Below, piece by piece: positions 1,976-62,922 of a stretch of DNA of 64,000 bases. Position numbers and translations under genes: made by a program. The stretch covers positions 96,001 through 160,000 of the forward strand of contig CAXXNO010000006.1 of assembly GCA_963663235.2 (NCBI GenBank), given 5' to 3'. Numbering within the stretch: the first letter of the stretch is position 1; each line of letters opens with the position of its first letter. The notes below the pieces were generated by a model that worked only from the letters and a program-made list of their open reading frames with translations, was not told where the DNA came from and made no database searches. The DNA is from Dehalococcoidia bacterium (GTDB taxonomy: Bacteria; Chloroflexota; Dehalococcoidia; Bin125).

Positions 1976-2389
1976 GTGCGGCTAGTCGCTTACGCGGACG
2001 GCGCCTCGCGCGGCAACCCGGGGCCGGCCGCCTATGGTGGTGCTCTCTACAGCGAAGCGGGGGTGGAAGTGCGTGCCGTGGCGCGGGCGATCGGTCGCGG
2101 GACCAACAACGATGCGGAGTATCAGGCCGCCATCGCGGTGCTCGAAGCGGCGCTGGAGATGCAGGCCACGGAGGTCGAGTTGCGCTTGGACTCGGAGTTG
2201 GTGGTGCGGCAAATCACCGGGATCTACCGGGTCCGCAGCGAACGGTTGCGCGGCTACTACGATCGGGTCTTGGCGCTCATAGAGCAACTGGAGCGTTTCC
2301 ACGTGCATCACATCCCGCGCGAGCAGAACCGCCGCGCCGACGCACTGGCGAACGGGGCGCTGGATGGCCGGCCCGCGAGCGCACCGTAG
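1976..2389 (+). CDS. rnhA: Ribonuclease HI family protein
   Basis: YADGASRGNPG, TNNDAEY, LDSELVVRQ, HIPREQNRRADALAN; GTG start inferred. Confidence 0.9.
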   Translation: MRLVAYADGASRGNPGPAAYGGALYSEAGVEVRAVARAIGRGTNNDAEYQAAIAVLEAALEMQATEVELRLDSELVVRQITGIYRVRSERLRGYYDRVLALIEQLERFHVHHIPREQNRRADALANGALDGRPASAP

Positions 2390-2402
2390 CGGAGCCGTAG
2401 TA
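2325..2402 (+). repeat. 78-bp direct repeat, copy 1 (rnhA 3' end)
   Basis: Matches 3799-3876 with one mismatch. Confidence 0.95.
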
Positions 2403-2761
2403 CGCAGCATTCCATATCGATGAGAATCGACGGCTGACAGGCCGTGCTGTTTACATCTGGACACACTGGTAACTAGGGTTTCGTCTGTCGTCCAATGAAA
2501 GGGCGTGCCAACGACTCCGTTGGCAATTGGTTGGCAACGACGTGCCTACGTCCGCGCCGGCAACGCGTCTTACCGCCGCTGGCTTCTCCGACGCGCGTGA
2601 ATGATCGCCTCTGCCTTCGTCTCTGTGGGCAGCAATCCATCGGTGCTGCAGCGGGGCTCGCGGAGTTCGTCTTCGCTGGCGTCTCCTCGCTTCGGCATGG
2701 CCGACGCTACGGTATACTCGCGCTCCCTCAGTTCTGACAGAGTCCTCTGAAGGAGACTCTC

Positions 2762-3545
2762 ATGTCCGCCAGCGTATCTGACATCGAACTGCACGGCCCA
2801 GGCGGCGGCGCACGCCGGGGGAACAAGATCGAAGCCAAGGAGTTGTCGGCGACCTTCACGGTGACCGTGGATACCGATGGTTGCTACGCGATCTTCGTCT
2901 CCCTCTGGGAAGATGACGACAACTTGCTGTGGTTCTTGAATCCAGACGAGAAGGGCCTGGGATACGAGAAACGCAATCGAATGCCACTGCCTAACGGCGG
3001 GCGAGGCCCAGGAGTTCGAGATTGGGGCGACCGCGTCGGAGGACCCCGCCGAACCCCCGGCGCCGGACCCGGACTCCAGCGTCATCCCTCTGGCGCCGAT
3101 GAAGGGGAATTGGCCCAAGTCGGATGCGGGAGGGGAAATCGAGTTGCGCCTCGAAGTAGAGGTCAAGCTCTGCACGCCGAATTGTGGCAAGGAGTGTGAT
3201 GACTACAACTACTTTACGGATAGTTTCGGCGATCCAGTCGGCAAGGGAAGCTCGGAGCTGGTGGACATCCCTCTTCCCGGCGGCAAGGAGCCGCATGAAA
3301 TCATGAAAGAGGCCGTCAAGGCGGCTGCCCCATCGGTCATCGGCGAGTTGATGAAGTCTACCCGTTCGGAAGAAGCGACTGAGGCCGTGTCTGCAGATCT
3401 CGCGTGGAGAGAAGGCGTGTCGAAGCAATTGAGGGCCCTCCAGCGAAGCGTCCGGGCGACGGAGGAGCGCATGATCTCGGAGCGCGCGAGAGTGAAGCGC
3501 GCTCGCTCCGAACGTCGTAGGCGGAGGCCCCGTGAACGAAGCTAA
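2762..3545 (+). pseudogene. Hypothetical gene in the 1.4 kb insert, apparently frameshifted near 2965
   Basis: ORF 2762 has a GGAG SD; the acidic, Cys-containing sequence continues in the +1 frame (AIECHCLTAGEAQEFEIG...MKGNWPK) to the stop at 3545. Confidence 0.55.
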
Positions 3546-3798
3546 GTCCGACGAGAGAGCTGCGTAGCCCACGTCGGCCAGGACCAGCGTCTAGATCCGC
3601 GCTGACAATGTCCGCAGAGTCGTAGGCCGTGGGGTGTTGCGCTACGACGAGGGGAAGAGGAAAGGGGGGTCGGAGGCCGGCTGGGGGCGCTAGGGCTTCT
3701 GGCTTCGACGTGACGGGTGGCATGGGGCTCTCCACGCTGGACCCGTTGCTGGGCCGTGTGCAGGTGCGATTGGTGTGCATCCAGACGTGCCACCCTGT

Positions 3799-3876
3799 AG
3801 AACCGCCGCGCCGACGCCCTGGCGAACGGGGCGCTGGATGGCCGGCCCGCGAGCGCACCGTAGCGGAGCCGTAGTA
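3799..3876 (+). repeat. 78-bp direct repeat, copy 2 (stranded rnhA 3' end, directly upstream of rnpB)
   Basis: Matches 2325-2402 and runs into TAGGAT, a candidate -10 box of rnpB. Confidence 0.95.
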
Positions 3877-3886
3877 GGATCAAGAC

Positions 3887-4258
3887 GGGCCAGGTGGCCG
3901 GGTGGCTGCGGTCCTTCCGGCAGTGGAAGGGCTGAGGAAAGTCCGAGCTCCACCGAGACGGGGCGCTGGGTAACACCCAGGAGGGGCGACCCTACGGAAA
4001 GCGCCACAGAAACATACCGCCCTTCCCGAAGGGGAAGGGCAAGGGTGAAATGGTGCGGTAAGAGCGCACCAGCGGCCGGGCGACCGGCCGGCTGGGCAAG
4101 CCCCGCCCGGAGCAAGACCACGTAGGAGGGCTATGGGAGTCTCGGCCCGCCCTCGGGTAGGTCGCTTGAGGCGGCGGGTAACTGTCGTCCTAGATAGATG
4201 GCCACCCCCTGTCGCTACGGCGGCGGGGACAGAACTCGGCTTACAGGCCACCTGGCCC
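3887..4258 (+). ncRNA. rnpB: RNase P RNA
   Basis: GAGGAAAGTCC, GGAAAGCGCCACAGAAA, GGTAAGAGCGCACC, ACAGAACTCGGCTTA; ends GGGCCAGGTGGCC / GGCCACCTGGCCC pair as P1. Confidence 0.97.
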
Positions 4259-4280
4259 ACTTCTCTTTCAGGCGAAGGCC

Positions 4281-5822
4281 GTGCCTAGGGCTGCCGTGGG
4301 CCGTGCGTTGCCCGATTTGCTGAATGCGACGCGGGTGCTGGCGGTGCATGGGCGGCCGCCGGCCCAGCCCGCGTCCCAGCTGAGCCAGGACTCGCGCGAG
4401 ATTGCTCCGGGGGCCTGCTTCGTGGCGGTGCCCGGCTTCCACGTCGACGGGCACGCGTACCTGGAGGAGGCGCTGGCGGCGGGAGCGGCGGCGGTGGTGG
4501 TGCAGGCCGATCGCCGGGCGTTGTGGGAGCCGCTCCTCGCGCGACCGCAGATCACAGTGGTCGAGGTTCCCGATACCCGCGCGGCGCTGGCGGACCTGGC
4601 CGCGGCCTTCCATGGATTTCCCGCTCGCTCGCTCACCGTGGTCGGCGTCACGGGCACCGACGGCAAGAGCACCACCAGTTATCTCATCTCCTCGATTCTC
4701 GAGGCGGCCGGAGGCCGCACCGGAATGATTAGCGGCGTGCAGTTCAAGGTCGGTGGCGAGTGGCGGATGAACGACCTCACCCAGACCAGTCCAGAGGCAC
4801 CGCTGGTGCAGGCGCTCCTGGCAGAGATGGTCGAGGCTCGTGTGACGCATGCCATCATCGAGTCGACGTCGCACGGGCTGGCGCTCCACCGGCTGGACCA
4901 CTGCGAGTACGACGTTGCGGTGTTCACCGGTCTGAGCGACGACCATTTGGATTTCCACGAAACGCGTGAGGCGTATATCGCGGCCAAGGCGGGTCTCTTT
5001 GCCGCCCTCGATCAGGCGTGCGACAAGGGCGTGCCGAAGCGCGGCGTCGTCAATGCGGACGATCCCCATGCCGGCGCGATGCAGGCGGCCACCCGAGCGT
5101 CGCTCATTCGCGTTGCTCTTGACGCGCCGGCGGTGGATGTCACCGCCACCGATCTCATGGAGGGGGCGGACGGCACGGAGTTTCTCTTGGTGACCGACGT
5201 GGGAGACGCGCGTGTCGACCTGCCGCTGCCGGGTCGGTTCAACGTGCGCAACGCCCTCGCTGCCGCGGGCGCCGGCCGTGCGCTGGGTGTTGCCCCCGAG
5301 GTGATTGCGCGCGGCCTCTCGAGCGTCGGCGGCGTGCCGGGGCGGATGGAGCGGATCGACGGCGGGCAGCCCTTTACCGTCGTCGTCGATGCGGCCGCAA
5401 CGACTGACGCGTTCCGTGTCGTGCTCGGCTCGATCAAGCCGCTCGTGACCGGGCGCCTGATCGCGGTTTTCGGCTGTGCCGGCGAGCGCGATCCCGGCCG
5501 CCGGCCGGGGATGGGCCGCGCCGCGGCGGAATACGCCGATTACACGGTGATCACGAGCGAGAATCCGCGCTCGGAAGAGCCGGGCGCCATCGTGCGGGAG
5601 ATCGCCGTGGCGATGGAGGGCGCCGGGCGCCGGACAGGCGTCGATTTTGAGGAGGAGCCCGACCGCCGGTCGGCCATCGCGCGGGCTCTGGAGTTGGCCG
5701 AAGCGAACGATTACGTCCTGATCGCCGGCAAGGGCGCCGAGCAGTCGCTCATCGTGGGCGACAGCGTGCAGCCCTGGGACGACCGCACCGTCACGCGCGA
5801 GTTGCTCGCCCAGCGTGGGTGA
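4281..5822 (+). CDS. murE: UDP-MurNAc-dipeptide diamino acid ligase
   Basis: DSR, GVTGTDGKSTT, ESTSHGL, DHLDFH, VPGRME, FGCAGERD, ENPR, IAGKG; exact start uncertain. Confidence 0.9.
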   Translation: MPRAAVGRALPDLLNATRVLAVHGRPPAQPASQLSQDSREIAPGACFVAVPGFHVDGHAYLEEALAAGAAAVVVQADRRALWEPLLARPQITVVEVPDTRAALADLAAAFHGFPARSLTVVGVTGTDGKSTTSYLISSILEAAGGRTGMISGVQFKVGGEWRMNDLTQTSPEAPLVQALLAEMVEARVTHAIIESTSHGLALHRLDHCEYDVAVFTGLSDDHLDFHETREAYIAAKAGLFAALDQACDKGVPKRGVVNADDPHAGAMQAATRASLIRVALDAPAVDVTATDLMEGADGTEFLLVTDVGDARVDLPLPGRFNVRNALAAAGAGRALGVAPEVIARGLSSVGGVPGRMERIDGGQPFTVVVDAAATTDAFRVVLGSIKPLVTGRLIAVFGCAGERDPGRRPGMGRAAAEYADYTVITSENPRSEEPGAIVREIAVAMEGAGRRTGVDFEEEPDRRSAIARALELAEANDYVLIAGKGAEQSLIVGDSVQPWDDRTVTRELLAQRG

Positions 5823-13336: not shown

Positions 13337-13930
13337 ATGCGCGAGAGCACCATCCACCGCACCACGCGAGAGACTGAAATCGACGTCGCGCTGAACCTCG
13401 ACGGATCGGGGCGCTACGAAGTTGAGACCGGGGTCGGGATGCTCGACCACCTGATCGAGCAACTGGCGCGTCACGGCGCCTTCGACCTGACCCTGCGAGC
13501 GACGGGAGACCTCGATCGCGACGCGCACCACACGGTGGAGGACGTCGGGCTGACGCTGGGGAAGGCGCTCGACGAAGCGCTCGGCGATCGCGCCGGAATC
13601 GCGCGGATGGCAAGCGCGCTCGTGCCGCTCGACGAAGCGCTGGTGCAGGTGGCGGTGGACCTCAGCGGCCGGGCCCACGCGGCTATCGACCTACGATTCC
13701 CCGGTGACACGATGGGGCAACTGCCGACGCAACTCGTTAGTCATCTGCTGGAGTCGATCGCGCAGGCGGGCCGGCTGACGCTGCACGTGCGCTCGCTGGC
13801 CGGCGAGAACGATCACCACATCGCCGAGGCTGCCTTCAAGGCGCTGGCTCGGGCGCTGCGGGACGCGGTGGCCCTGGATGCTCGCGCGGCGGGCACTGTG
13901 CCAAGCACCAAAGGCACGCTTACGACGTAG
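13337..13930 (+). CDS. hisB: Imidazoleglycerol-phosphate dehydratase
   Basis: RTTRET, HHTVED, NDHHIAEA, VPSTKG. Confidence 0.96.
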   Translation: MRESTIHRTTRETEIDVALNLDGSGRYEVETGVGMLDHLIEQLARHGAFDLTLRATGDLDRDAHHTVEDVGLTLGKALDEALGDRAGIARMASALVPLDEALVQVAVDLSGRAHAAIDLRFPGDTMGQLPTQLVSHLLESIAQAGRLTLHVRSLAGENDHHIAEAAFKALARALRDAVALDARAAGTVPSTKGTLTT

Positions 13931-13972
13931 GCGATTCCGCCACGGCCGCGACCGTGTAGCGGTAGTCCTCGA
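13920..13972 (-). pseudogene. Stranded alternative purS 3' end (EDYRYTVAAVAESPTS*)
   Basis: 13950-13972 matches purS 14093-14115 at 22/23; has its own TAA overlapping the hisB end. Confidence 0.75.
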
Positions 13973-14046
13973 CCTCACCCCCTGGCCCCCTTCGACAAGC
14001 TCAGGACAGGCCCTCTCCATCGGCAAGCGATGGAGAGGGGGAAGAG
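13973..14046. repeat. REP-like palindromic element
   Basis: CCTCACCCCCTGGCCCC, CCTTCGACAAGCTCAGGACAGG, CCCTCTCCATC-GGCAAGC-GATGGAGAGGG. Confidence 0.85.
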
Positions 14047-14056: not shown

Positions 14057-14332
14057 TTAGGTGCCGCCGGGTTTGGCCTCTTCTGCGGGGTGGACGGTGT
14101 AGCGGTAGTCCTCGATCACCGGGTTGGCGAGGAGCTTGTCGCACATGGCGTCGGCTTGGCGCTCGGCCGTGGCCTGATCGGGCGCGTCCAGCCAGATCTC
14201 GATGTACTTGCCGGCACGCAGGTCGGTCACACGGTCGAAGCCGAGGTCGGCCAGGCCCATCTTGATCGTCAGCCCTTGCGGGTCGTTGACCGTGCGCTTG
14301 AGGGTGACGAAGATGTCGGCTTTGAACTTCAT
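14057..14332 (-). CDS. purS: FGAM synthase subunit PurS
   Basis: VNDPQG, GKYIE, MCDKLLANPVIEDY. Confidence 0.95.
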   Translation of the reverse strand: MKFKADIFVTLKRTVNDPQGLTIKMGLADLGFDRVTDLRAGKYIEIWLDAPDQATAERQADAMCDKLLANPVIEDYRYTVHPAEEAKPGGT

Positions 14333-29309: not shown

Positions 29310-30554
29310 ATCACCCGAGCGACGAAGGACAAACCGCTGCACACCACCGCTCCCCCAGCGGAGCGCGCCATTCTGGTCGCCGTCGACAGCGCCCGAACAC
29401 AGCACTGGAACGTCAACTCATCGCTCGACGAACTGTCGATGCTGGCGGTCAGCGCCGGCGCGCGGCCGCTAGCCCGCGTGAGCCAACGGCTGAAGCATCC
29501 CGACGTGCACTCGTACGTCGGCAAGGGGAAATTGCAGGAGTTGGTACAGCTACGCGAAGAGTTGGGCTACACACTGGCGCTCTTCGACGATGAACTGACA
29601 CCGGCGCAGCAGCACACATTGGAACGAGCGCTCGCGGTCAAAGTGATCGATCGCACAGCGCTGATCTTGGACATCTTCGCCCAGCGCGCCCATACGCGAG
29701 AGGGCGCATTGCAAGTGGCGCTGGCGCAGCACGAGTACCTCTTGCCGCGCCTGGCCGGGCAGTGGTCCCACTTGGAGCGGATGGAAGGCGCGATCGGCGC
29801 GCGAGGACCGGGCGAAACGCAGTTGGAGACGGACCGCCGGCTGGTGCGCCAGCAGATCAAGCGCCTCAAGCAGCAGATCGGGCAGGTGCGGCAGCACCGG
29901 AGCCAGTACCGTCGCCGGCGGCAGCGGGCCGGCATCGCGGTCGTGGCGCTGGTGGGGTACACGAACGCGGGGAAGAGCACGCTGATGAACGCGCTGACGC
30001 GGGCCGGCGTGCGCGCGCACGACCGCATCTTCGAGACGCTGGACCCGGTCACGCGTCGGTGTCCGTTGCCGGACGGCGGCACCGTGCTGTTGACCGACAC
30101 GGTGGGCTTCATCGAGAAGTTGCCCACGCAGCTGGTGGTGGCGTTCCGCGCCACGCTGGAGGAGTTGGAAGACGCAGACCTGCTGCTGCACGTTGTCGAC
30201 ATCACGCATCCCGACGCGGCGGAGCAGAGCCAGACCGTCGAGAACACGTTGGCCGAGCTGGGGCTGGAGACGCGGCCGCGGTTGACGGTCCTCAACAAGG
30301 TCGACCAGGTACAGAGCCCGGCGGGGCGCGCGCCGCAGGAGTTCGCCGACTTGCGGGAGTTCACGGAAGAGGTCACGCGGGAACGGCCCGACGCGGTCCT
30401 GCTGTCCGCGGAGAAGCGATGGGGGCTGGAGGAGTTGCGCGAGCGGATCGTGAGCGTGCTGAAGGGGGGCGATACGGCGCCCTCGGAGGAGAGTGACACC
30501 GGGGTGAGCGTCGATCCGCTGCGGCAGGTTCGGGTGGTCACGCGGGCGGGCTAA
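29310..30554 (+). CDS. hflX: GTPase HflX, probable ATC start
   Basis: GYTNAGKS, TDTVGFI, NKVD; conserved ERAILV...SLDEL lies upstream of the first ATG (29439); GGAGGAG SD 6 nt before ATC 29310. Confidence 0.93.
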   Translation: MTRATKDKPLHTTAPPAERAILVAVDSARTQHWNVNSSLDELSMLAVSAGARPLARVSQRLKHPDVHSYVGKGKLQELVQLREELGYTLALFDDELTPAQQHTLERALAVKVIDRTALILDIFAQRAHTREGALQVALAQHEYLLPRLAGQWSHLERMEGAIGARGPGETQLETDRRLVRQQIKRLKQQIGQVRQHRSQYRRRRQRAGIAVVALVGYTNAGKSTLMNALTRAGVRAHDRIFETLDPVTRRCPLPDGGTVLLTDTVGFIEKLPTQLVVAFRATLEELEDADLLLHVVDITHPDAAEQSQTVENTLAELGLETRPRLTVLNKVDQVQSPAGRAPQEFADLREFTEEVTRERPDAVLLSAEKRWGLEELRERIVSVLKGGDTAPSEESDTGVSVDPLRQVRVVTRAG

Positions 30555-30582
30555 GGCCGGCGGTTCGCTTGAGGCGGAGGGT
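30538..30582 (-). pseudogene. Stranded alternative 3' end of the WrbA-like gene (TLRLKRTAGLSPPA*)
   Basis: Peptide LRLKR shared with the present end SLRLKRQPLP*; own TGA overlapping the hflX end. Confidence 0.55.
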
Positions 30583-30586
30583 GGGG

Positions 30587-31075
30587 AAGAGAAACCTCAC
30601 CCCCCGGCCCCCTCTCCATCGCAAGCGACGGAGAGGGGGAGTTTTATTCCATCGCGGGCGGAGCGTGGGGGACAGCGCAGCGGGGGTCGCGCGCGGCGGG
30701 GGCGTGAACCTCACCCCCCGGCCCCCTCTCCATCGCAAGCGACGGAGAGGGGGAGGAGAGGGGGCGACGGCAGGCTACTTGGCGTCGAGGTCGCGGAGGG
30801 CGGGGAAGAGAAACCTCACCCCCTGGCCCCCTCTCCATCCTTCCCAGGAGGGAAGGATGGAGAGGGGGAAGAAGGACGGATCACAGGGCCGCCCCGTTCT
30901 CCTTCGACCCTTCGACAAGTTCAGGACAGGCTTCGCTCAGGACGAACGGGGCGGGAGAGGGACCTCACCCTTCCGCTGAACGAAGGGCGCAAGCGCCTCC
31001 TGGCCCTCCTTCGACACGGCTCAGGACAGCCCCTCTCCGTTGGAGAACGATGGAGAGGGGGAAGAAGAGGGAGTG
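30587..31075. repeat. Mosaic REP-like array
   Basis: Several CCCTCTCCATC...GGAGAGGG hairpins plus CCTTCGACAAGTTCAGGACAGG and CCTCACCCTTCCGCTG modules. Confidence 0.9.
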
Positions 31076-31093
31076 ATGGAACGCGGCCCGCAC

Positions 31094-31630
31094 TCATGGC
31101 AGCGGTTGGCGTTTCAATCGCAGGGAGATCTGGGCTACCCGCTTGCCTAACACGCGGGCCTGGCGGCGGTCGATGTCGCGGACGGCGCCGTGGGCGGTGG
31201 CGCCGTAGTAGGATCCCGACTCGCGCATGTCGTCGGACCAGGGCAGGCCGACGATCACCATGCCGTGCGCCATGAGCAGGTGGATGAGCTGCAGGAGCGT
31301 CGCTTCGGTGCCGCCGGAGCGGGACCAGCCGGCGGTGAAGCAGGCGCCGACCTTGCCGGCCAGCTCCCCGCTCTCCCAGAGATCGCCGGAGTAGTCCATC
31401 CAGTCCTTGAGCCTGCCGGTCATCCCGCTCCAGTTGGGCGAGCCGAGGATCAGGGCGTCGCAGGCGAGGAGGTCGGCGTGCTGGGCCTCTTCCAAGGAGC
31501 GTTCCCAGGCGACGGCGCCCTGGATCTCGCGGACGCCGTCGAGGACGGAGGTGGCCAGCTCCTGGGTGAGGCCGCGGCCGTCGTAGAGGACGAGGACCGT
31601 GGCGCGGACGTCGGCGGCGGCGGCGGTCAT
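31094..31630 (-). CDS. WrbA-like flavodoxin / NAD(P)H:quinone oxidoreductase
   Basis: DALILGSPNW, LAGKVGACF, SGGTEATL, HGMVIVG, SYYGA. Confidence 0.85.
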   Translation of the reverse strand: MTAAAADVRATVLVLYDGRGLTQELATSVLDGVREIQGAVAWERSLEEAQHADLLACDALILGSPNWSGMTGRLKDWMDYSGDLWESGELAGKVGACFTAGWSRSGGTEATLLQLIHLLMAHGMVIVGLPWSDDMRESGSYYGATAHGAVRDIDRRQARVLGKRVAQISLRLKRQPLP

Positions 31631-34290: not shown

Positions 34291-34338
34291 GTGGGGCTGG
34301 TTGTTGCTGGGACGTTGCGGGTGTAGGTCTGTCCCTGG

Positions 34339-35737: not shown

Positions 35738-35809
35738 CATCCCTCGCTCCCGTTGACCCCTCCCCACCCCCCACCTAGCCTGACACCGACCCCACGATGG
35801 GAGACGCAC

Positions 35810-36521: not shown

Positions 36522-37280
36522 TCAACCCCCACCCGCCAGCCCGGGGGCGAGCCCCGGTTCCCAGATCACCGCGATCGCCAAGGCGAAAGCCGCGACCGCG
36601 ACGCCTCGCCCGAACTGCTCCCCTCGCGACCAATGCTTCTCGACTGCCACCACCGCCGCCAGCCCCACCATGGCCCACAGGTTCATCACGCCGAACGCGG
36701 CCATCAACGCCATCAACGACCAGCAACACGCCAGGCAGAACCATCCGTTGTGCGCGCCCGCGCGCAGATCGCGCAGCGCGCCTCGATACGATGCCACTTC
36801 GAAGATCTGCCCGATCGGTGAGCGGCAGTGTTGCAAGCATCGGGACTTCAGCGGTGTGAGCTGATAGACGCCGCACGCAGCGAAGATGCCGGCTGCGGCG
36901 ACCGTGCCGATGGCGGGCGCTGCAGCCGCGGCCTCGCCCGCCGCCCAGGCGATTCCAAACGCGGGTACGCCCGTCGCCCCCCACACCAGCAGGTACCCGA
37001 TGGCGAAGAGCAGCAGGCGTGGGGTCCGATTCGACACCACCGTCCGCGAGTACATCGACGCAAACGGCGCCGCCGACGGCAGCATCATCGCCGTCATCAT
37101 CAGCCCCCACATCACCGCAAAGGCGATGAAGTCCATGCCCATGGTGCCCGGCATGACGCCCATGTCGCGCGCCTGATCCACCGTCCACAGCCAGGCCAGC
37201 CCCGCGACTAGCAGCAGGGCCAGGACCTGCGGACGCAGCCACCGCCCGCCACGTGTCGAGGAGGTGGCTACGCGCTCCAT
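36522..37280 (-). CDS. DUF2182 metal-binding membrane protein
   Basis: WGLMMTAMMLPS, YQLTPLKSRCLQHCR, CLACCW, GVMNLWAM, VEK. Confidence 0.88.
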   Translation of the reverse strand: MERVATSSTRGGRWLRPQVLALLLVAGLAWLWTVDQARDMGVMPGTMGMDFIAFAVMWGLMMTAMMLPSAAPFASMYSRTVVSNRTPRLLLFAIGYLLVWGATGVPAFGIAWAAGEAAAAAPAIGTVAAAGIFAACGVYQLTPLKSRCLQHCRSPIGQIFEVASYRGALRDLRAGAHNGWFCLACCWSLMALMAAFGVMNLWAMVGLAAVVAVEKHWSRGEQFGRGVAVAAFALAIAVIWEPGLAPGLAGGG

Positions 37281-37881
37281 GAGAAGGGGGCCCAATGCCC
37301 GTTCTTGCCGCTGTTGTCCCACTCCATGCCGAACGCTTTCACTCGGGACCGCTCGGCCCTGGCGATCGTCAACGTTGAGTTCGCCTGGTGGAACAGGTAC
37401 ACGCCCGTCACCTTGGAAACCTCGCCACCCGGCGTCTGCGGCGGGACGAAATCCTCGATCTCAATATCGATTGCATCCCCCACTTTGACGCGATGCCGGC
37501 GGCCTTCGTTCGTGTACTCGATTCGGGCCTGCTCCACTCCCAGTATCTCGCCGACCAGCGGATGCACCGCTGCCATCGGCCCGCCCAACTGACCCCCGAA
37601 CACGCGCCCCAGCGCCTCCGCCTGCTCCGAGGAGGCCCCGTCGTCCAGGATCAGCCCCACGCGCCAGTCACCGTCCGCCATCACCTTGGGCGTATCGGCA
37701 ACGATGACCACGCTGCGGTCGCTCACGTCCACCCTTCCACCTCGCCGGAGTCGACGTGAAACGCGAGCAGGACATGGCACCGCTCGTTGTCGGCGGGCGC
37801 CGTCAGCGCTGATGTGGTGCAAGGACACACGACGTCGCAGTTACAGTTCTCGAAGTAACTGCCATCCAGTTTCCACGTCAC
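37268..37881 (-). pseudogene. DUF1326 duplicate with small indels near the 5' end
   Basis: Closely similar to 38134-38742 but frame broken around 37730-37835. Confidence 0.85.
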
Positions 37882-37974
37882 GGTCTCACCGCCTTTCGTC
37901 GGGGTGGAAGGTTATTGATCTCGTTCGAGTGCTGTCAAACGATCCGGATCTCTGGGGCCAGGAGGCGAGGTCAC

Positions 37975-38085
37975 TCCCTTCTCCTCCCCCTCTCCATCCT
38001 TCCCACCGGGGAAGGATGGAGAGGGCCTGTCCTGAGCGAGCCGCAGGCGAGTCGAAGAGCCTGTCCTGAGCTTGTCGAAGGGAGG
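37975..38085. repeat. Mosaic REP-like array at the duplication junction
   Basis: CTCTCCATCCTTCCC-ACCG-GGGAAGGATGGAGAG hairpin and two CCTGTCCTGAGC...GTCGAAG modules. Confidence 0.88.
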
Positions 38086-38088
38086 GCC

Positions 38089-38146
38089 GGACCTGCGGAC
38101 GCAGCCACAGTCCGCCGCGTACCGAGGAGGCGGCTACGCGCTCCAT
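38089..38146 (-). pseudogene. Truncated 5' fragment of DUF2182
   Basis: MERVAASSVRGGLWLRPQV, then repeat array. Confidence 0.8.
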
Positions 38147-38742
38147 GAGAAGGGGGCCGAATGTCCGTTCTTCCCGCTGTTGTCCCACTCCATGCCGAAC
38201 GCCTTCACGCGGGACCGCTCGGCTTTAGCGATCGTCAGAGTCGAGTTCGCCATATGGACCATGCCTGTCAACTTGGAAACCTCGCCTCCGGGCGTCTGCG
38301 GCGGTACGAAATCCTCGATCTCGATGTCGATGGCATCCCCCACTTTGATGCGATGCCGGCGGCCTTCGTTTGCGTACTCGATTCGGGCCTGCTCCACTCC
38401 CAGCATCTCGCCGACCAACGGATGCACCGCTGCCATCGGCCCGCCCAACTGGCCCCCGAACACGCGCCCGAGCGCCTCCGCCTGCTCCGAGGAGGCGCCG
38501 TCGTCCAGGATCAGCCCCACGCGCCAGCCACCGTCCGCCATCACCTTGGGCGTATCGGCAACGATGACCACGGTGCGATCGCTCACGTCCACCCCTTCCA
38601 CCTCGCCGGCGTCGACGTGAAACGCGAGCAGGACCTGGCACCGCTCGTTGTCGGCGGGCGCCGTCAGCCCCGATGTCACACAGGGACACACCACGTCGCA
38701 GTTACAGTTCTCGAAGTAACTGCCATCCAGTTTCCACGTCAC
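38134..38742 (-). CDS. DUF1326 family protein
   Basis: ENCNCDVVCPC, GGPM, ends FSWSA; paired with DUF2182. Confidence 0.88.
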   Translation of the reverse strand: MTWKLDGSYFENCNCDVVCPCVTSGLTAPADNERCQVLLAFHVDAGEVEGVDVSDRTVVIVADTPKVMADGGWRVGLILDDGASSEQAEALGRVFGGQLGGPMAAVHPLVGEMLGVEQARIEYANEGRRHRIKVGDAIDIEIEDFVPPQTPGGEVSKLTGMVHMANSTLTIAKAERSRVKAFGMEWDNSGKNGHSAPFSWSA

Positions 38743-38826
38743 GGGCTCACCGCCTTTCGTCGAGGTGGAAGGGTATCGATCTCATTCAAGTGCTGTCAAA
38801 CGATCCGCATCTCCGGGCACCCGCCC

Positions 38827-45340: not shown

Positions 45341-45511
45341 TTCCTAAAACTCGCCGAGGAAACATCGTACCAGCGCGCCGTAGGCCGTCAATCGTCACTC
45401 ACTCTCGCTGCGTGTTGGCGACTGGCGGACGCGCATCTCCGCGACGAATTACAGGCGATGGTCTGCCGACTTTCGTCGCACGGCCTCGTTAACTTTTCTC
45501 AATGCCCGACC

Positions 45512-45745
45512 CCGTTGTCGACGCACCACCCTCTTGCGCGGCGCAGCCGCGCCAAACGACACCATGACCTCCAACGCCCTACGCCCCCGTCAGCCGCACC
45601 CGATCCCCCACCCCGGCGCCGTTGTCGGCGAACCACCCTCCTGCGCGGCGCAGCCGCGCCAAACGACACCGTCACCTCCAACGCCCTACGCCCCGGTCAG
45701 CCGCACCCGATCCCCCACCTCGACGCCGTTGTCGACGAACCATCC
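45512..45745 (-). repeat. 107-bp tandem repeat, about 2.2 copies, made of the DUF192 gene 3' end plus downstream DNA
   Basis: CCGTTGTCG recurs at 45512, 45619 and 45726. Confidence 0.88.
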
Positions 45746-46405
45746 TTGGTTAACCTCTAACGCCCAGCGATACGCCGCGCCTGGGCTGTGCAGCTCTCTC
45801 GTCAACGGCTCCATGTCCTGGATGTCGATGATCACGCCGTCTCGGTCGATGAACGCGATCGACAGCGGCACCAGCGTGTTCTCCATCCAGAACCCGCCCC
45901 TCGTGTCCGCCGCGAACAGGAACAGCATCCCCGCGTCCGCCCCCAGCGACTCCCGGAACATCAGCCCCCGCGCCCGCTCCCCCGCCGTGTCCGCCAGCTC
46001 GACTCGCACGATCCGCACCGCGCCCGACGCCGTCTCCACCGCCAGCAGCGCCTCGGCCTCGGCCCGCGCGGGCTGCGCCCACGTCACCTCTCGATCGGCT
46101 CGCAGCCAGTACGCTTCGCCGGGCTCAAGTTCCTCCAGCGTCGCGAGCGACGGCGCCGCGCGGAACCAGCTCTCCCACCCCTGCGACGCCGCCTCCCAGT
46201 GCCACACCGCGTCCACCGCCTCCGCCGCCGCCCCCAGCGCCTCCTCGACCGGCAACCGCTCGCCCGCGTACACCACGTTGTTCCACCCCGCGCGGAGCGT
46301 CACGTCGGCCGATTGCGCCTCCGCCTGCGGCGCGAGCAATCCCGCCCCCACGAGCAGGCTCGCCAGCACACCCAGCACCCCAGCCGCCGGCAGATTCATA
46401 AGCAC
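45686..46405 (-). CDS. Secreted DUF192 protein with an N-terminal surface module
   Basis: ARGLMFRE, GMLF, FWMENTLVPLSIAF, ALEVNQGWF. Confidence 0.88.
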   Translation of the reverse strand: MLMNLPAAGVLGVLASLLVGAGLLAPQAEAQSADVTLRAGWNNVVYAGERLPVEEALGAAAEAVDAVWHWEAASQGWESWFRAAPSLATLEELEPGEAYWLRADREVTWAQPARAEAEALLAVETASGAVRIVRVELADTAGERARGLMFRESLGADAGMLFLFAADTRGGFWMENTLVPLSIAFIDRDGVIIDIQDMEPLTRELHSPGAAYRWALEVNQGWFVDNGVEVGDRVRLTGA

Positions 46406-53050: not shown

Positions 53051-53215
53051 AAGAGGGAACCTCACCCTTCCGCTGTGCGAAGGGCGCAAGCGCCCCCTGG
53101 CTCTCCTTCGACTCGCCTGCGGCTCGCTCAGGACAGGCCCTCTCCATCGGCGAGCGATGGAACCTCACCCCCTGGCCCCCTCTCCATCGGCAAGCGATGG
53201 AGAGGGGGAGGAGAC
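53051..53215. repeat. Mosaic REP-like array, other half of 35581-35737
   Basis: Starts AAGAGGGAACCTCACC at the IS end. Confidence 0.88.
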
Positions 53216-53217
53216 GA

Positions 53218-53595
53218 CTAGTCGTCGGAGACGAGGACGCGGCCGTCGACGACGCGGGTGCGGAAGGTGCGGATGCGCTTGGGATTGAGCCACTTTTCGA
53301 GGAAGGGTGGGAGCGGGGGCGCTTTCTGGTCGAGGACGTGCCAGAGACCGCGGGGGAGCCACTTTTTGGTCTCGCCGGTGCGGAGGTCGAACTCGGAGTC
53401 GTGCCAGGGGCAGACGATGTTGGAGTGGTCGAGATGGCCCACCGAGAGGGGGGCTGCGAGGTGGGGGCAGCGATCCTGGACGGCGAAGAGTTCACCATCG
53501 AGGTTGGCGACGCAGACGCGTTGCCCGTCCACCTCCCCGGCCGTGACGGAGCCGGGCGGCAGGTCGGCCAGGGCGCAGATATCGGCTTCGGGCAC
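53218..53595 (-). CDS. Rieske 2Fe-2S ferredoxin
   Basis: CPH...CPWH..FDLRTG. Confidence 0.9.
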   Translation of the reverse strand: MPEADICALADLPPGSVTAGEVDGQRVCVANLDGELFAVQDRCPHLAAPLSVGHLDHSNIVCPWHDSEFDLRTGETKKWLPRGLWHVLDQKAPPLPPFLEKWLNPKRIRTFRTRVVDGRVLVSDD

Positions 53596-54800: not shown

Positions 54801-54806
54801 GCAGCG

Positions 54807-59300: not shown

Positions 59301-59688
59301 CGCCGCCGCCGGCGATGTCGAGGTCGCCGGTCATGGCGGCGTCCTCGTTGGCCCCGGCGATGGTGAGGGTGAAGGTGCCGGCGATCAGGGTGATGGTGTC
59401 ATCGCCCGCGAGGGCGTTGGCTTCCATGATCGCGGCGCGCAGCGTGCAGGCAATAAAGCCGCCGGCTGAGCAAATGCCGTCGCCCGGGTTGATGTCCACC
59501 GCGTCAGTCCCCGTCGTGACCGTGAAGTTTGCGCCGTGGGCGGTATCCGAGGTGAGTAAGAGCGTGAGCGAGGCGGTGAGCGTCGCTACGACGACGACGA
59601 TAGCGGCCAAGAAGGAGGCCGCGGGGAGGGGGCGACGGCCCCGGGCGGCAGCGCGGATGAGGTTCAGGGGGCGAGCGTCGAGGTGCAT
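56358..59688 (-). pseudogene. Large secreted beta-helix protein (CSLREA-like, choice-of-anchor Q, DxDxDG/DCDD repeats, two C-terminal modules); +1 frameshift in a C8 run at 57873-57880
   Basis: CTLRAAIMEANA, GG(G/A)I.N repeats, [28 protein letters not shown]. Confidence 0.85.
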
Positions 59689-59790
59689 GGGGCGTTCCTC
59701 TCGCAAAGGCGCGGCGCGGCTGTGTCGTTGGCGGGGCGTCGCAGGTGAAGTCGAAGGCTACGACGCGAGGGAGGGGGGGCAACGACGCGA

Positions 59791-59841
59791 GCGGGCGCCG
59801 CTTAGGCCGGGAGCGGGCGGAGGGGAAGGTCGAAGACGGTG
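59791..59841 (-). pseudogene. Stranded copy of the dehydrogenase 3' end (TVFDLPLRPLPA*)
   Basis: 48/51 match to 61925-61975. Confidence 0.88.
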
Positions 59842-59875
59842 TCGCCGACGGGGGTGAAGCCGGGTCTCAGCGCTC

Positions 59876-61839
59876 TCAGCCCACGGCGATGGTCCGCTGC
59901 CCCACCGACACGACCCAGAGGAAGTCCCCCGGCGCGAGCGCGAAGTTCACCGTGCCCAGGGGGGGATGAACGCCGTCCAGCTCAGTCCGAAGGGGTCCCA
60001 CAGCCAGGCGATCTTCACCGTCGCGAACACATCCGCAGCCAGCGCCGTACCGAACTGCCAGAACACGAACTGGCCGCCGTCCCTGAGCATCAACTCACCA
60101 ACGGGAGGCTCCTCCTCCTCGGGCATCATCTCGTCGTCGGCCTTGCCGAGCAGGTCGCTGCCGTCGCAGTCCTGATCGATGCCGTCGTCCGCCACCTCGG
60201 GCGCGCCGGGGAAGATGGTGGGGTCGGTGTCGTCGCAGTCCGTGCCGCCCGCGGCGATGGAGTCGAAGCCGTCGCCGTCGGCGGCCGCGACATCATCGAA
60301 GCCGTCGCCGTCTGCGTCCGCGTCCTGGAACTCGACGGCACCGATGTCGGTCAGGCCGACGCGGGGGAGGCCGCGCTGGTCGGTGGGGGGCGCGCCCACG
60401 TCGTCGCCGGCGTTGATGGCGGGGCTGCCTGGGAGCAGCGCGTGCGTCTGGGTGGGGCCGCCGTTGGCGGCCAGCAGGCCGAGGAGCGGGTCGGTTGCGG
60501 GCAGGTCACCGCCAGCTCCCAGGTTGCAAGTGCCATCGGAATCGATGTTGTTGCCGAGGGAGACGAGGGGGCCGTCGCAGTCATCGGGACCGTTGGCCGC
60601 CACGATGGTGTTCTTCAGGGTGGCGCTGTTGCCGCTGTGCCGGATGCCGCCGGCTACAGCGGCGTTGTTGCCGGCGATGGTGCTGTTGACGACCGTTAGC
60701 GCGCCGCCGCCGGTGTTGAAGATGCCGCCGACGCCGACCACCGCGGTGTTGCCACTCACCGTGCTGCTGGTGAGCGTCAGCATGCCTCCAGCATTGGAGA
60801 CGCCGGCGCCGACAACGGCAGCGGTATTGCCGCTCACGGTGCTGTTGGTGAGCGTGGCGATGCCGTCGTCGTTGAAGACGCCGCCACCATCGGAGCCCGC
60901 ATTGTTGTTGCCGACTGTGCTGTTGGTGAGTGTGGCGATGCCGTCAACGTTCCAGATGCCCCCGCCATCGGAGGGTGTCGCCGTGTTGAAGCCGACCGTG
61001 CTGTTGGTGAGCGTCAGCGAGGCAGCGCCGCCGGTGCTGGCGATGCCGCCTCCGGCGTTGGCTGTGTTGTTCGTGACGCTGGTGTCTGTCAGCGTCAACG
61101 CGCCGGCGTTGAAGATGCCACCGCCCTCATCGGTGGCGGTGTTTCCGCTGATGGTACTGGCCGCCAGGGCCGCCGACGCGGCGGGCAAGAAGAAGGGGAA
61201 ACCGGTGGCGGCGGAGATGGCGATTGCGCCGCCGTCCATGGCGGTGTTTCCGCTCAGCGTCGAGCGGGTCAGCGACAGGGAGCCGCCCGCGACGTTAATG
61301 GCGCCGCCAGAGCTTCCGGCGGCGTTGCCGTCGACGATGGTGACGCCCGAGATGTTGAGCGTTGCGCTGAAGAGCACGTGGAAGACACGGTCGATGCCGC
61401 CGCCGTCGATGACGGCGGGAGAGTCGAGGAAGTCGGCGGTGATGGTGAGGCTGTTGCCGGCGTCGGTGATGTCGAGGTCGCCGGTCATGGCGGCGTTCTC
61501 GTTGGCCCCGGCGAGGGTGAGGATGTAGTTACCGGGGGGCAGAGTGATGGTGTCGTCGCCGTCGAGGGCGTTGGCCTCCATGATCGCGGCGCGCAGCGTG
61601 CAGCCCGGCAGGCCGGCCGAGCAGATGCCGTCGCCCGGGCTAAAGTCCACCCCGTCAGACCCCGTCGTGACCGTGAAGTTTGCGCCGTGGGCGGTATCCG
61701 AGGTGAGCAGGAGGGTGAGCGAGGCCGCGAGCGTCGCCACGACGACGACGATAGCGACCAAGAAGGAGGACGCGGGGAGGGGGCGACGGCGCCGAGCGGC
61801 AGTGCGGATGAGGTTCAGCAGGTGAGCGTCGAGGCGCAT
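59876..61839 (-). CDS. Paralogous shorter CSLREA-like secreted protein; -1 frameshift in a G7 run at 59959-59965 cuts the C-terminal module
   Basis: Same N-terminus as 59688; after the slip the other frame reads LGTVNFALAPGDFLWVVS...VG*. Confidence 0.85.
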
Positions 61840-61935
61840 GGGGGCGCTCCTCTGGAAAGGACGCGGCGGCGTCGCGGGCGAAGTCGGAGGCTATGGGCTG
61901 GCTGGTAGGTGGTCAACGGCATGGGCGGGCGCCGC

Positions 61936-62922
61936 TTAGGCCGGGAGCGGGCGGAGGGGGAGATCGAGGACGGTGAGGAGACCACGGGGGGCGGACGGGA
62001 CGACGCGAGCAGCGCCGAGAATGGTGGCGGCGGTGGCGTCGTCGCCGAAGACGCCGCCCTCGATGCGAAGGCGCAGGGGCGGGGTGCCGTCGACGTCGAT
62101 GAGGTCGTAGTCGGCGTCGACGCCGGCGTGGGCCTCGAAGTGGAAGCGCACGCTGCGGCCGTCGGACGTGGCACCGCTGAGGGTCTGGCGGGTGCCGAGC
62201 ACGGGGCCGATGGGGTCGTCGGGCGGCACGGGCTCGAGCGTTTCGCGCCAGTCGTCGATGCGCCAGTCGAGAGCGGCGGCGATCAAGCGGGCGCTCTCCT
62301 GGAGGCCCACGTGGCCGAAGGCGCCGCTCTCGGCGAGGCGGTCGTACTCATCGCGGGGGAGGTTCATGCCCACCTTGCGTTGAAACTGCACGCGGCGGGT
62401 TTTGGGGTTCTGCACGCGCTCCACGGTGACCGAGCGGATGGAGTGCGCGGCCTGCGCCAGCATGACCGCCAGCCGGTCCATGACGAAGCCGGGGTTGACG
62501 CCCGTGCCGACAAGCGTGCGCTCCGCCGATCGCGCTGTGTCGTGGAGGCGACTGCTGAGCTCCGGGTGGCGGGCGAAGGGGTAGGCGAGCTCCTCACAGG
62601 TGGAGACGACGTGGAGGCGGAGTCGCAGGGCCTGATCGAGTTGCGGGGCGACGCGATCGAGGTAGGAGCCGGTCGCGTGGAGGAGGACGGGGGAGGCGGA
62701 ATCGGGGAGGGCGGCCGCATCAAGCGCTTCGGCTAGGGTGTCGCGCACGGTGATGCCGCCTGTCGCGCCAGAGACGACCTGGGCGAGATCACGGCCGACG
62801 ATGGAACCGGCGACATCGACTGCGCCCACGAGGCGGAAGGCGGGGTGTGCCTGGGCGGCGAGGAGGATCTTTGCGCCGATGGGGCCGAGGCCCTGTACGA
62901 GCGTGGGAATCGGGTCCGGCAT
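61936..62922 (-). CDS. DapB-like / 2,4-diaminopentanoate dehydrogenase-family NAD(P) oxidoreductase
   Basis: GLGPIG, VVSTCEEL.YP, GTGVNPGFVMD, FQRKVG, GDDATA. Confidence 0.8.
   Translation of the reverse strand: MPDPIPTLVQGLGPIGAKILLAAQAHPAFRLVGAVDVAGSIVGRDLAQVVSGATGGITVRDTLAEALDAAALPDSASPVLLHATGSYLDRVAPQLDQALRLRLHVVSTCEELAYPFARHPELSSRLHDTARSAERTLVGTGVNPGFVMDRLAVMLAQAAHSIRSVTVERVQNPKTRRVQFQRKVGMNLPRDEYDRLAESGAFGHVGLQESARLIAAALDWRIDDWRETLEPVPPDDPIGPVLGTRQTLSGATSDGRSVRFHFEAHAGVDADYDLIDVDGTPPLRLRIEGGVFGDDATAATILGAARVVPSAPRGLLTVLDLPLRPLPA

Follow-up and report, generated by a model that had tools for sequence, protein, structure and literature searches.

The window analysed here, a 64,000-nt stretch of a Dehalococcoidia genome, carries several genes whose 3' ends are present twice (Table 1). 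A preliminary description had named six such sites, at rnhA, purS, a WrbA-like gene, DUF1326, DUF192 and a dehydrogenase gene, each with a working 3' end, other DNA and a stranded old 3' end; at the nucleotide level (local alignment, repeat finding and TRF), five of these are borne out, while the WrbA-like site does not rise above chance.

Table 1. Features of the duplicated gene ends in the window (positions in nt; 3' ends are those of the named gene)
Feature	Position	Strand	Basis
rnhA (RNase H), intact	1976..2389	+	Pfam RVT_3/RNase_H; NCBIfam RNase HI models
rnhA direct repeat copy 1 (working 3' end and 13 nt beyond stop)	2325..2402	+	77/78 identity to 3799-3876
rnhA insert, 1396 bp, one ORFan gene	2403..3798	+	
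rnhA direct repeat copy 2 (stranded 3' end), ending 13 nt before rnpB	3799..3876	+	Repeat search, local alignment
rnpB (RNase P RNA gene)	3890..4259	+	Rfam RF00010, 298.6 bits
Stranded purS 3' end: repeat copy 2 (13950-13979) and old tail	13920..13979	-	
One REP unit between purS repeat copies	13971..14046	.	59 genome matches
purS with present tail	14057..14332	-	Pfam PurS
REP array (~30575-31066) and short frame (stop 30537-30539) between hflX and WrbA-like gene	30537..31093	-	
WrbA-like flavoprotein gene	31094..31630	-	Pfam FMN_red; NCBIfam WrbA models below cut-off
DUF1326 repeat copy 2: frameshifted gene copy, fused to PpoB2 gene (36522-37322)	37216..37956	-	Repeat search, Pfam
REP array exactly between the DUF1326 copies	37957..38082	.	
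DUF1326 repeat copy 1, holding intact gene 38134-38742	38083..38817	-	Repeat search, Pfam
107-bp tandem array (minisatellite), 2.3 copies, 91% matches	45505..45746	-	TRF
Stranded dehydrogenase 3' end copy, heading second CSLREA-like unit (gene 57400-59706)	59791..59841	-	
First tandem unit: dehydrogenase tail (61925-61975) and CSLREA-like gene 59947-61839	59842..61975	-	
Dehydrogenase gene (2,4-diaminopentanoate dehydrogenase-like), intact	61936..62922	-	Pfam DAP_DH_C; NCBIfam below cut-off

The first repeat copy at rnhA takes in the last 65 nt of the gene, and the insert that follows has a lower GC content than rnhA itself (0.62 versus 0.69). Its ORFan gene (2762-3545) is frameshifted in this assembly; two extra nucleotides at 2953/2954 in four public runs restore a single frame. 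A search of 300 genomes from the class and two collection scans found no homologue. In most relatives, rnpB directly follows rnhA: the spacing is ~53 nt in the three closest matches (G004, G012 and G017), and the two genes are adjacent or nearly so in most of the other relatives in which both were located. The site is a recurrent one, as G007 has a different 1.37-kb gene (encoding RCC1 repeats) between rnhA and rnpB, without a repeat, and the site is empty in its congener G014. Neither a donor nor an allele that is filled without a repeat was found for the rnhA insert.

In four public runs, the depth of the rnhA insert relative to its two flanks (per-contig means of metagenome contigs) was 6.66 versus 14.8/14.5, 3 versus 13.6/13.3, 6.3 versus 5.26/5.9, and 2 versus 2.8/2.7. 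Since the insert stands at 22-45% of flank depth in two of the four runs, it is probably polymorphic in the population. The same lowered depth, in a genome assembled in 14 contigs and 91.9% complete, could be taken to mean that strain variants have been linearised into one contig to give false repeat-insert-repeat layouts. We give this hardly any credence: contigs from three independent public runs read through both rnhA junctions as far as the variable repeat positions, and at most other sites the copies differ by 2-20%, and so cannot be one collapsed sequence.

At purS, the first repeat copy (14093-14120) matches the second over an ungapped core of 19-23 nt; between them lie the REP unit and a unique 50-nt stretch coding for the present tail. 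Positions 14057-14096 of the gene have no second occurrence in the genome. With its stop at 13920-13922, the stranded frame overlaps hisB (which ends at 13930) by 11 nt, resembling, as had been proposed, the compact, overlapping junctions of relatives; moreover, the edge of the repeat coincides with the point at which the relatives' tails become variable. The exchange of C-terminal tails put forward in the preliminary description is confirmed here and only here, the other repeat-flanked sites having kept the same tails. The DUF1326 repeats are far longer (742 nt at 91% identity) and are separated by 126 nt, 77% of it REP; copy 1 starts 10 nt past the stop codon of an acyl-CoA dehydrogenase gene (38827-40062).

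The short frame next to hflX was considered as a stranded tail of the WrbA-like gene, but a duplication could not be confirmed there. The best nucleotide match of the gene in local alignment is a weak one of 23 nt inside the REP array, and only five residues of the two frames are alike (LRLKR); the pair scores 25 in the genome-wide translated scan, where it ranks 1278th and where 1229 permuted pairs reach the same score. The frames also differ in their tails, at a site that is itself not above chance.

Two further sites have a different anatomy. The DUF192 gene (45686-46405, minus strand) has its last 61 nt and its stop codon inside the first 107-bp unit of the minisatellite, and the end of the dehydrogenase gene (61925-61975) matches its stranded copy over 51 nt, extending to 113 nt at 81% identity; the CSLREA-like units that follow are 74-88% identical over about their first 900 nt, giving a tandem unit of ~2.15 kb. 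Because the sequence after the second copy is homologous to that after the first, both sites are fully accounted for by ordinary tandem duplication. The near breakpoint falls within the last 40-61 nt of the gene and the far one beyond it, and, therefore, the first copy completes the gene while the second strands a tail, by geometry and with nothing inserted. A comparable tandem array (147 bp, ~3.7 copies) lies at C8:34588. Slippage or unequal crossing-over would yield such arrays; by contrast, at rnhA, purS and ilvC-type sites the DNA after copy 2 is unrelated to that after copy 1.

A single integrase-free process had been invoked for all six sites, tandem arrays and REP sites included, with regular swapping of C-terminal tails. 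The outward layout is indeed common to every confirmed site, REP units lie between the copies at both purS and DUF1326, and the window, at 2.3% of the genome length, holds 44 of the 385 local repeat chains. However, one process for all is decidedly improbable: at DUF192 and the CSLREA site, the DNA after one copy is homologous to that after the other and nothing foreign lies between the copies, which contradicts it; the WrbA-like site is at chance level; and purS is the sole confirmed case of a swapped tail. As for the REP elements, only four among 95 non-genic repeat arrays lie between unique repeat pairs detected by BLAST, purS being a fifth that was found by the flank scan alone.

Across the genome, 67 of 2419 genes have a match to their final 80 nt in the 3 kb that follow them (score at least 38), compared with 6 for permuted gene pairs and 8 for the reverse complement, an excess that the preliminary description had anticipated. 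The mirror test, with gene starts searched upstream, also gives an excess (51 versus 12), and most of the signal at gene ends is thus general local duplication, for example of tandem paralogs. The bias towards 3' ends emerges from 98 unique interspersed repeats (≤400 bp), 20 of which span a 3' end and two a 5' end (25 versus 5 and 29 versus 6 at looser tolerances; one-sided binomial p ~1e-4); the genes come from our own crude caller, in which start codons are less exact than stops, and the bias still holds at a tolerance of 60 nt. Genes with a working 3' end, unrelated DNA and a stranded old 3' end hence form, as claimed, a genome-wide and strongly 3'-biased class. Unrelated DNA flanked by the repeats is seen at rnhA, purS and DUF1326 and at about 8-9 further sites in the genome.

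The inserts range from 78 nt to 2.8 kb, and the unique target repeats, which span the gene's end, from 19 to 742 bp. Repeat edges are sharp at 12 sites, and at six of these no more than 2 nt separate the repeat end from the stop codon; at one site (C1), the copies end at the same codon with different stops (TAG and TGA). Over 14 repeat pairs there are 30 synonymous and 46 non-synonymous substitutions (8 and 2 in the six most similar pairs), a mixed result overall in which the more diverged pairs look neutral. By Pfam, the cargo comprises PIN and RHH genes (VapBC), DUF2283, DUF4440 with a NosD-like gene, a trypsin-like protease, a truncated cation-efflux gene and ORFans; at some sites it consists of REP units. 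The inserts are mutually unrelated by blastn and tblastx, save for one weak tblastx match between the C2 insert and the CSLREA unit.

The preliminary description had called the process integrase-free, and this holds: none of the 15 Phage_integrase matches in the genome lies inside the nine non-REP inserts checked (0.4-2.8 kb), and a genome search found no Y1 transposase. At the repeat-flanked insertion sites there is no recombinase gene, no common core and no terminal repeat, and the best pairwise score between repeats (10) equals the 95th percentile of the null.

Site-specific integrative elements carry a replacement 3' end for their target, a tRNA or protein gene, which they leave restored, as do their integrase-less relics (CIMEs); repeat blocks starting within a gene and stopping shortly past its end are typical of such target-restoring attachment sites. 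The inserts might then be decayed elements of this kind, immobile or moved in trans, and the two are alike in having direct repeats from inside the target gene to its end, an insert between them and an intact target; the rnhA insert is, in addition, probably polymorphic and of lower GC. Moreover, the genome has some eight full-length tyrosine recombinase matches, and a serine-recombinase-like gene adjoins rnhA. That gene, however, holds the same place in nine of nine relatives' loci that are free of the insert, and its similarity to recombinase models starts only at about residue 117, leaving the catalytic N-terminal domain undetected. The nine non-REP inserts (0.4-2.8 kb) have no integrase inside or next to them, some inserts are as short as 78-511 nt, and the roughly eleven different targets have no core in common, such that each would need an enzyme of its own. 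Overall, an origin as integrative relics seems improbable.

The arrangement at ilvC bears on the mechanism. The leuA leader directly follows ilvC in G012, G004, G009 and G024, an empty site like those at rnhA/rnpB, in keeping with the expectation that relatives would have them. In G000, what follows copy 1 has its orthologue in the ilvC-ORF138 arrangement of G003 (score 101), where the insert is present without any stranded tail, whereas copy 2 is followed by sequence orthologous to the empty site of G012 and G004 (scores 69 and 63). From sequence comparison, we infer that this is the signature of two alleles. Two observations weigh against this reading. ORF138 is found at this position in another genus too, with 78% identity, a lower figure than the 91% between the two ilvC repeat copies; the insert therefore predates the repeat, unless gene conversion has been homogenising the copies. 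Relative to the working copy, moreover, the stranded one has lost the stop codon and carries five non-synonymous changes, at residues conserved in all relatives. This reads as decay from a near-identical copy and could follow equally from target duplication in one step or from recombination with a very close relative.

In such a one-step event, opposite-strand nicks or breaks 20-740 nt apart would be filled in while stray DNA was captured, leaving two initially identical copies. The pathway would be a dedicated one or one of break repair, such as has been proposed for restriction-modification genes. The G000 ilvC site is built exactly so, with the insert after copy 1 and the native spacer after copy 2; its stranded copy resembles a neutrally decaying duplicate of the working one, the rnhA copies are identical at 77 of 78 positions, and the repeat lengths vary as widely as those reported for insertion with long target duplication. 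Nevertheless, we regard it as unlikely, as it offers no reason for repeats to end within 2 nt of a stop codon at half of the sharp-edged sites, nor for the different stop codons of the two C1 copies; Ku was not found (in a genome 91.9% complete), the cargo has no common nuclease, and another genus shares ORF138 without the repeat.

We cautiously favour the view that the layout arises by at least two routes. The first is the ordinary tandem duplication of DUF192 and the dehydrogenase/CSLREA unit. The second, at rnhA, purS, DUF1326 and the 8-9 or so further sites, is insertion with long target duplication, which would be driven by host recombination rather than by an enzyme encoded on the element. 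A filled and an empty allele of one locus would be joined through one homologous and one illegitimate junction, either in the manner of homology-facilitated illegitimate recombination (HFIR) or by Campbell-type entry of a circularised fragment, leaving the conserved gene end present twice. Selection would presumably retain only those products in which the upstream gene still reaches a stop codon, which would explain the 3' bias. The start of inserts right after stop codons is not explained by the two-allele model itself.

The layout at rnhA, purS and DUF1326 matches a known, albeit poorly understood, event, and the statement that it corresponds to no named system therefore falls. Insertion with long target duplication reportedly goes back to Nobusato et al. 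in 2000 (Gene 259:99), and HFIR or C-terminal displacement is said to be treated by de Vries and Wackernagel (2002), Prudhomme et al. (2002) and Jackson et al. (2009). In the cases set out by Furuta, Abe and Kobayashi (2010; NAR, PMC2853133; see also Lim et al. 2012, PMC3457768), as here, an insert without a mobility gene lies between unique direct repeats (>30 bp), with a one-copy empty site in a related genome, and the repeats often span start or stop codons, so that the target gene is spared. Repeat lengths vary in both (46-423 bp in those published cases, PMC2853133; 19-742 bp here). The cargo described there is restriction-modification genes, whose DNA breakage is the proposed cause (PMC2853133), whereas here it comprises toxin-antitoxin pairs, ORFans, a protease gene, a gene fragment and REP units, so the event is independent of what is inserted. 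The present sites also differ in that repeats often end precisely at the stop codon and in that the preference for 3' ends has been measured (20 versus 2).

HFIR, which the preliminary description had suggested, remains a live explanation. In the Rhs/CDI/T6SS loci covered by Kirchberger et al. (2017; PMC5361080), C-terminal displacement is likewise integrase-free: homology in a conserved upstream stretch provides the anchor, the join at the other end is illegitimate, and the old 3' part is moved downstream as an orphan. The genes in that account encode polymorphic toxins, in which the new tip takes over the function while the immunity genes stay in place (PMC5361080); here, by contrast, HFIR is only a candidate, the stranded piece is short, and housekeeping genes, purS excepted, keep the same tail.

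The preliminary description had listed six gene ends in the window, those of rnhA, purS, a WrbA-like gene, a DUF192 gene, a dehydrogenase gene and a DUF1326 gene, at which an intact 3' end is followed by inserted DNA and then by a stranded older 3' end. Window genes were mapped with Pfam on 90 candidate ORFs, and the tail of each of the six genes was compared with the 3.5 kb downstream by local alignment, complemented by a repeat search and TRF. Five of the sites (rnhA, purS, DUF192, dehydrogenase and DUF1326) were borne out at the nucleotide level; hereafter, copy 1 denotes the end of the working gene and copy 2 the stranded end. The WrbA-like site was dropped from the count: a nucleotide repeat is absent, and its translated score of 25 is at chance level, ranking 1278th genome-wide and being equalled by 1229 permuted pairs. 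The frame adjoining hflX at this site ends within hflX (18-nt overlap) and has LRLKR in common with the working tail; across the genome, the translated tail scan gained nothing over the nucleotide repeats.

Gene-end repeats and associated features. Plain positions are those of the window; positions with a C prefix lie on other contigs of the same genome.
Feature	Position	Detail
rnhA repeat	2325-2402 / 3799-3876	77/78 identity, 1396 bp apart
RNase P RNA	3890-4259	Rfam; begins 13 nt past rnhA copy 2
Insert ORFs at rnhA	2762-3199, 3099-3545	
Serine-recombinase-like gene	550-1965 (+)	Recombinase and Zn-ribbon domains
purS repeat	14093-14120 / 13950-13979	~23 bp; local alignment
purS interval	13971-14046 (REP unit)	plus unique 50-nt stretch encoding present tail
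Stop of stranded purS frame	13920-13922	11 nt inside hisB
DUF192		107-bp tandem array, 2.3 copies, 91% matches (TRF)
Dehydrogenase repeat	61925-61975 / 59791-59841	51 nt, widening to 113 nt at 81%
DUF1326 repeat		742 nt, 91% identity; 126-nt REP array fills exact gap between copies
Further class B sites	C1:74618, C2:68062, C4:685305 (ilvC), C4:723689, C8:11606, C12:29401, C12:341566, C12:367300, C9:14533	
147-bp tandem array	C8:34443-35262	~3.7 copies
18-nt repeat	C11:89403-89645	>10 repeats
9-nt tandem repeat	46580-46626	perfect, 5.2 copies
Large repeat proteins	56358-61839 (-)	three, clustered
Repeat around REP unit	C9:98777-98807 / 98914-98944	31-nt direct repeat
IS3-family-like transposase gene sets	33916-35756 (-), 51876-53221 (+)	HTH_Tnp_1, HTH_21, rve_3
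Gene between rnhA and rnpB in relative G007	G007:C1:127801-131200 (locus L060)	1.37 kb
leuA leader	C4, locus L033 ~2940-3090	~60 nt conserved

The proposal that a single process lies behind all six sites is not supported. At DUF192, which is a head-to-tail array, and at the dehydrogenase, the stretches past copy 1 and past copy 2 are homologous, and both sites are therefore tandem duplications (class A); at the dehydrogenase, two CSLREA-like units, one of 2134 nt and the other of 2152 nt, with a CTLRAA motif in both genes, are 74–88% identical over approximately their first 900 nt. Any tandem duplication whose two breakpoints lie within a gene and past its end, respectively, is bound to yield a complete gene with a 3' remnant stranded behind it. 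The outward picture is thus the same, and such cases must be sorted out first. At rnhA, purS and DUF1326, the interval DNA is unrelated to the DNA past copy 2 (class B), and the same criterion yielded the further class B sites in the table; a head-to-tail arrangement was found neither at rnhA, purS and ilvC nor at the remaining class B sites. The pair at C12:50722 (114 bp at 79%) may represent diverged paralogs instead.

Other tandem repeats were noted in passing. The 147-bp array, at C8:34588, begins within the final ~105 nt of a gene that lacks an annotation and encodes a cysteine-rich C-terminus, and it is comparable to DUF192; the 18-nt unit lies between two convergent genes, and downstream of the DUF192 region, the 9-nt repeat adjoins REP units. 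The three large repeat proteins carry 78-nt internal repeats, MopE-type metal-binding motifs and a choice-of-anchor Q domain; two of the ORFs (56358-57836 and 57400-59706) overlap by ~436 nt in different frames, and one may be broken.

Across the genome (2.75 Mb, 14 contigs, GC ~67%), in which the window is C6:96001-160000, genes were called with a custom codon-usage caller, which gave 2567 genes at 86% coverage, with stops reliable and starts less so. The last 80 nt recurred within 3 kb downstream at a score of at least 38 for 67 of 2419 genes, versus 6 for permuted gene pairs and 8 for the reverse complement. The search of gene ends against a null, as proposed in the preliminary description, does therefore return an enrichment, though the mirror test of gene starts against upstream DNA also gave 51 versus 12, and tandem paralogs make up most matches of both scans. 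A gene-agnostic self-BLAST census produced 385 local direct-repeat chains with a spacing of up to 4 kb; 119 were unique and interspersed, and 98 of those had repeats of 400 bp or less. Within these 98, a gene that runs in from the outer flank has its 3' end inside the repeat in 20 cases and its 5' end in 2; the counts become 25 versus 5 with a 30-nt tolerance and 29 versus 6 with 60 nt (one-sided binomial p ~1e-4). It follows that a 3'-biased class of repeat sites exists in this genome.

The class B repeats are 19–742 bp long, occur in 2–4 copies in the genome and enclose inserts of 78 nt to 2.8 kb. Repeats of >30 bp flank the insert at rnhA (78 bp), DUF1326 (742 bp) and eight other sites in the genome (63–114 bp), the ~23 bp of purS falling below this threshold. 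According to Pfam, the insert ORFs include a PIN+RHH pair, DUF2283, DUF4440 plus a NosD-like protein, a trypsin-like protease, a truncated cation-efflux gene and ORFans, with no restriction or methylase domain among them. The inserts are not related to each other, and no motif common to the repeats was found. Moreover, none of the 15 Phage_integrase matches in the genome lies within the nine non-REP inserts of 0.4–2.8 kb that were checked, and a genome search found no Y1 transposase (Y1_Tnp).

A further property of these repeats concerns their far edge, which, relative to the end of the stop codon, lies at +2, -16, -18, -54, -2, -1, -13, -1, -54, -4, -1 and 0 nt in 12 sites; it is thus within 2 nt in 6 of 12, against a roughly calculated expectation of ~6% per site for a random stop position in a ~85-nt repeat. 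At the C1 site, the same codon is TAG in the working copy and TGA in the stranded copy, and the purS repeat ends at the point where the tails of relatives begin to vary. Taken together, these observations indicate that the repeat edge tends to coincide with the boundary of conservation.

The layout had not been recognised as a named system in the preliminary description. Class B in fact corresponds to insertion with long target duplication, which Furuta et al. (2010; PMC2853133) describe for restriction-modification (RM) genes, with repeats of 46–423 bp, empty sites in sister genomes, and repeats that often lie over start or stop codons, the target gene thereby being spared. The two have in common repeats of >30 bp (purS excepted), empty sites in relatives, the lack of a mobility gene and a unique repeat; they differ in that, here, the cargo is not RM, a 3' bias has been measured, the repeats tend to have their edge at the stop codon and the insert appears to be polymorphic. 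RM cargo is, then, not required. An orphaned 3' end is also shared with the Rhs and T6SS loci, where Kirchberger et al. (2017; PMC5361080) describe C-terminal displacement via homology-facilitated illegitimate recombination (HFIR). In contrast to a site-specific integrative element, or its integrase-less relic (CIME), there is neither an integrase within or beside the inserts checked nor a shared attachment core. Overall, the observation is largely real, and class B adds a variant to a kind of event that is known but unsolved in its mechanism; this single organism offers about a dozen clean cases of the layout. The entry of small accessory genes, such as toxin–antitoxin pairs and ORFans, into compact chromosomes without integrase or transposase is poorly understood.

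REP sequences were considered as a cause and rejected. Unique flanking repeats surround REP only at purS, DUF1326, C9:98777 and a few others of the 95 arrays; their lengths of 23–742 nt, together with the failure to find a Y1_Tnp transposase (RAYT), do not fit REP/MITE transposition with a regular target-site duplication. Nor is REP a general cause: it lies between only 4 unique repeat pairs, and flank-to-flank matches at the 95 arrays are mostly higher-order REP units. For DUF1326, REP-mediated unequal crossing-over was rejected because there is no REP outside the two copies. REP arrays are slightly more frequent in convergent and in divergent spacers (5.1% each) than in co-directional spacers (3.1%). 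The right copy of the repeat at C9:98777 covers the start of a gene (98905-100236), making this site the mirror image of purS. The two transposase gene sets, each frame-split, lie within the REP-dense region at 30–55 kb.

All relatives compared belong to other genera, same-genus genomes being absent from the set searched. Empty sites were seen there at rnhA/rnpB and ilvC/leuA, and the hisB/purS junction is compact. In G004, G012 and G017, genomes from other genera of the family, rnpB follows rnhA after ~53 nt, with a similar arrangement in most of the remaining genomes, which marks the 1.4-kb insert as derived. This spacer is a recurrent insertion point: G007 has a different gene there, with RCC1 repeats and six 111-nt internal repeats, w​ithout flanking repeats, and the site is empty in its congener G014. 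The large serine-recombinase-like gene lies just upstream of rnhA, outside the insert; XisF/Ccr models match it only from about residue 117, the catalytic N-terminal domain being undetected. It is retained at the corresponding place in relatives whose loci lack the insert (9 of 9), which suggests that it is domesticated and non-mobile. In relatives, hisB and purS were both found at 15 loci, and at 8 of these the spacing between the convergent genes is -11 to +13 nt; in one relative, they overlap by 11 nt and the tail reads ...ATS*, resembling the ...PTS* of the stranded tail, which is plausibly the older one.

At the ilvC locus, the empty arrangement, running from ilvC to the leuA leader, is seen in G012, G004, G009 and G024, whereas G003 has ilvC-ORF138-leuA without a stranded tail. 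The genome studied carries both in series: the DNA past copy 1 is orthologous to the G003 type (score 101), that past copy 2 to the empty type (69 and 63), and copy 2 begins 6 nt past the ORF138 stop. At the C1, C8 and C12:29401 sites, and likewise at DUF1326/PpoB2, the flanking genes are not neighbours in other genera and no empty site is readable.

In six public metagenome runs, which come from six studies, at least 87% of the words sampled from window 1900-4300 are present; four of the runs (X14–X17) were compared, as contigs. In X14, X15 and X16, one contig extends from the end of copy 1 through the whole insert into copy 2, up to the variable base, so both rnhA junctions are independently reproduced. 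Since the repeat has a 58-bp identical core, an empty allele has no unique 31-mers and depth is the sole signal: insert versus flank contig depth is 6.66 versus 14.8/14.5 in X14, 3 versus 13.6/13.3 in X15, 6.3 versus 5.26/5.9 in X16 and 2 versus 2.8/2.7 in X17, which suggests that the insert is carried by ~45% (X14) and ~22% (X15) of the population. At 2953/2954, 2 additional nt are present in all four runs; with these, the two insert ORFs would form one gene of ~261 aa, and the window copy has either a frameshift or an assembly error at this point. Neither a search of 300 genomes of the class nor pattern scans of genome and metagenome contig collections gave a match to the insert gene. A consensus scan of 2200-4000 found no promoter or terminator in the repeat; copy 2 might preserve the rnpB promoter. 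A joint from 2341 to 3957 in X14 was disregarded: one of its sides measures 25 nt and its depth is 85.7, so another organism is its probable source. At purS, contigs break in the REP unit.

The class B loci are concrete places to test allele recombination with one illegitimate end against staggered-break capture. Duplication combined with recombination with a diverged allele has been put forward as an alternative by Lim et al. (2012; PMC3457768). We favour a host recombination event that would bring together a filled allele and an empty one through a single illegitimate join (HFIR-like or Campbell-type); selection would then retain those products in which the stop codon is preserved. The two-arrangement structure at ilvC, the edges at conservation boundaries, the independence of cargo, the lack of recombinases and the repeat-free filled alleles in G003 and G007 all count towards it. 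A GGTGA microhomology lies at the REP/repeat edge of purS. Against it, the stranded ilvC copy has 5 non-synonymous changes at conserved residues and has lost the stop, a state that resembles neutral decay of what was a nearly identical copy. One-step long target duplication is a serious rival. Also against the favoured route, synonymous and non-synonymous changes over the repeat pairs are mixed (30 and 46 overall; 8 and 2 in the six most similar pairs), and no donor allele was found. ComEC and DprA are present, but also in 10–11 of 14 control genomes, giving weak support for DNA uptake; together with Ku, which was not found in a gene search of this genome, they say little either way about mechanism.

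A bolder reading, which we consider unlikely, is an active, cargo-independent pathway in this lineage that would open DNA right after stop codons and duplicate 20–740 nt of target. With no recombinase encoded by an element, it would place toxin–antitoxin pairs, ORFans and REP units downstream of housekeeping genes, the products staying polymorphic in natural populations. Its cause could be breaks or template switches at the end of translation, where untranslated nascent RNA can form R-loops. If this were true, insertion with long target duplication would be a general host-driven route of gene gain rather than a property of RM genes.

Finally, the leuA leader contains ~60 nt that are strongly conserved, also in G003, G004 and G012, with an invariant block in the alignment; it may be a regulatory RNA.
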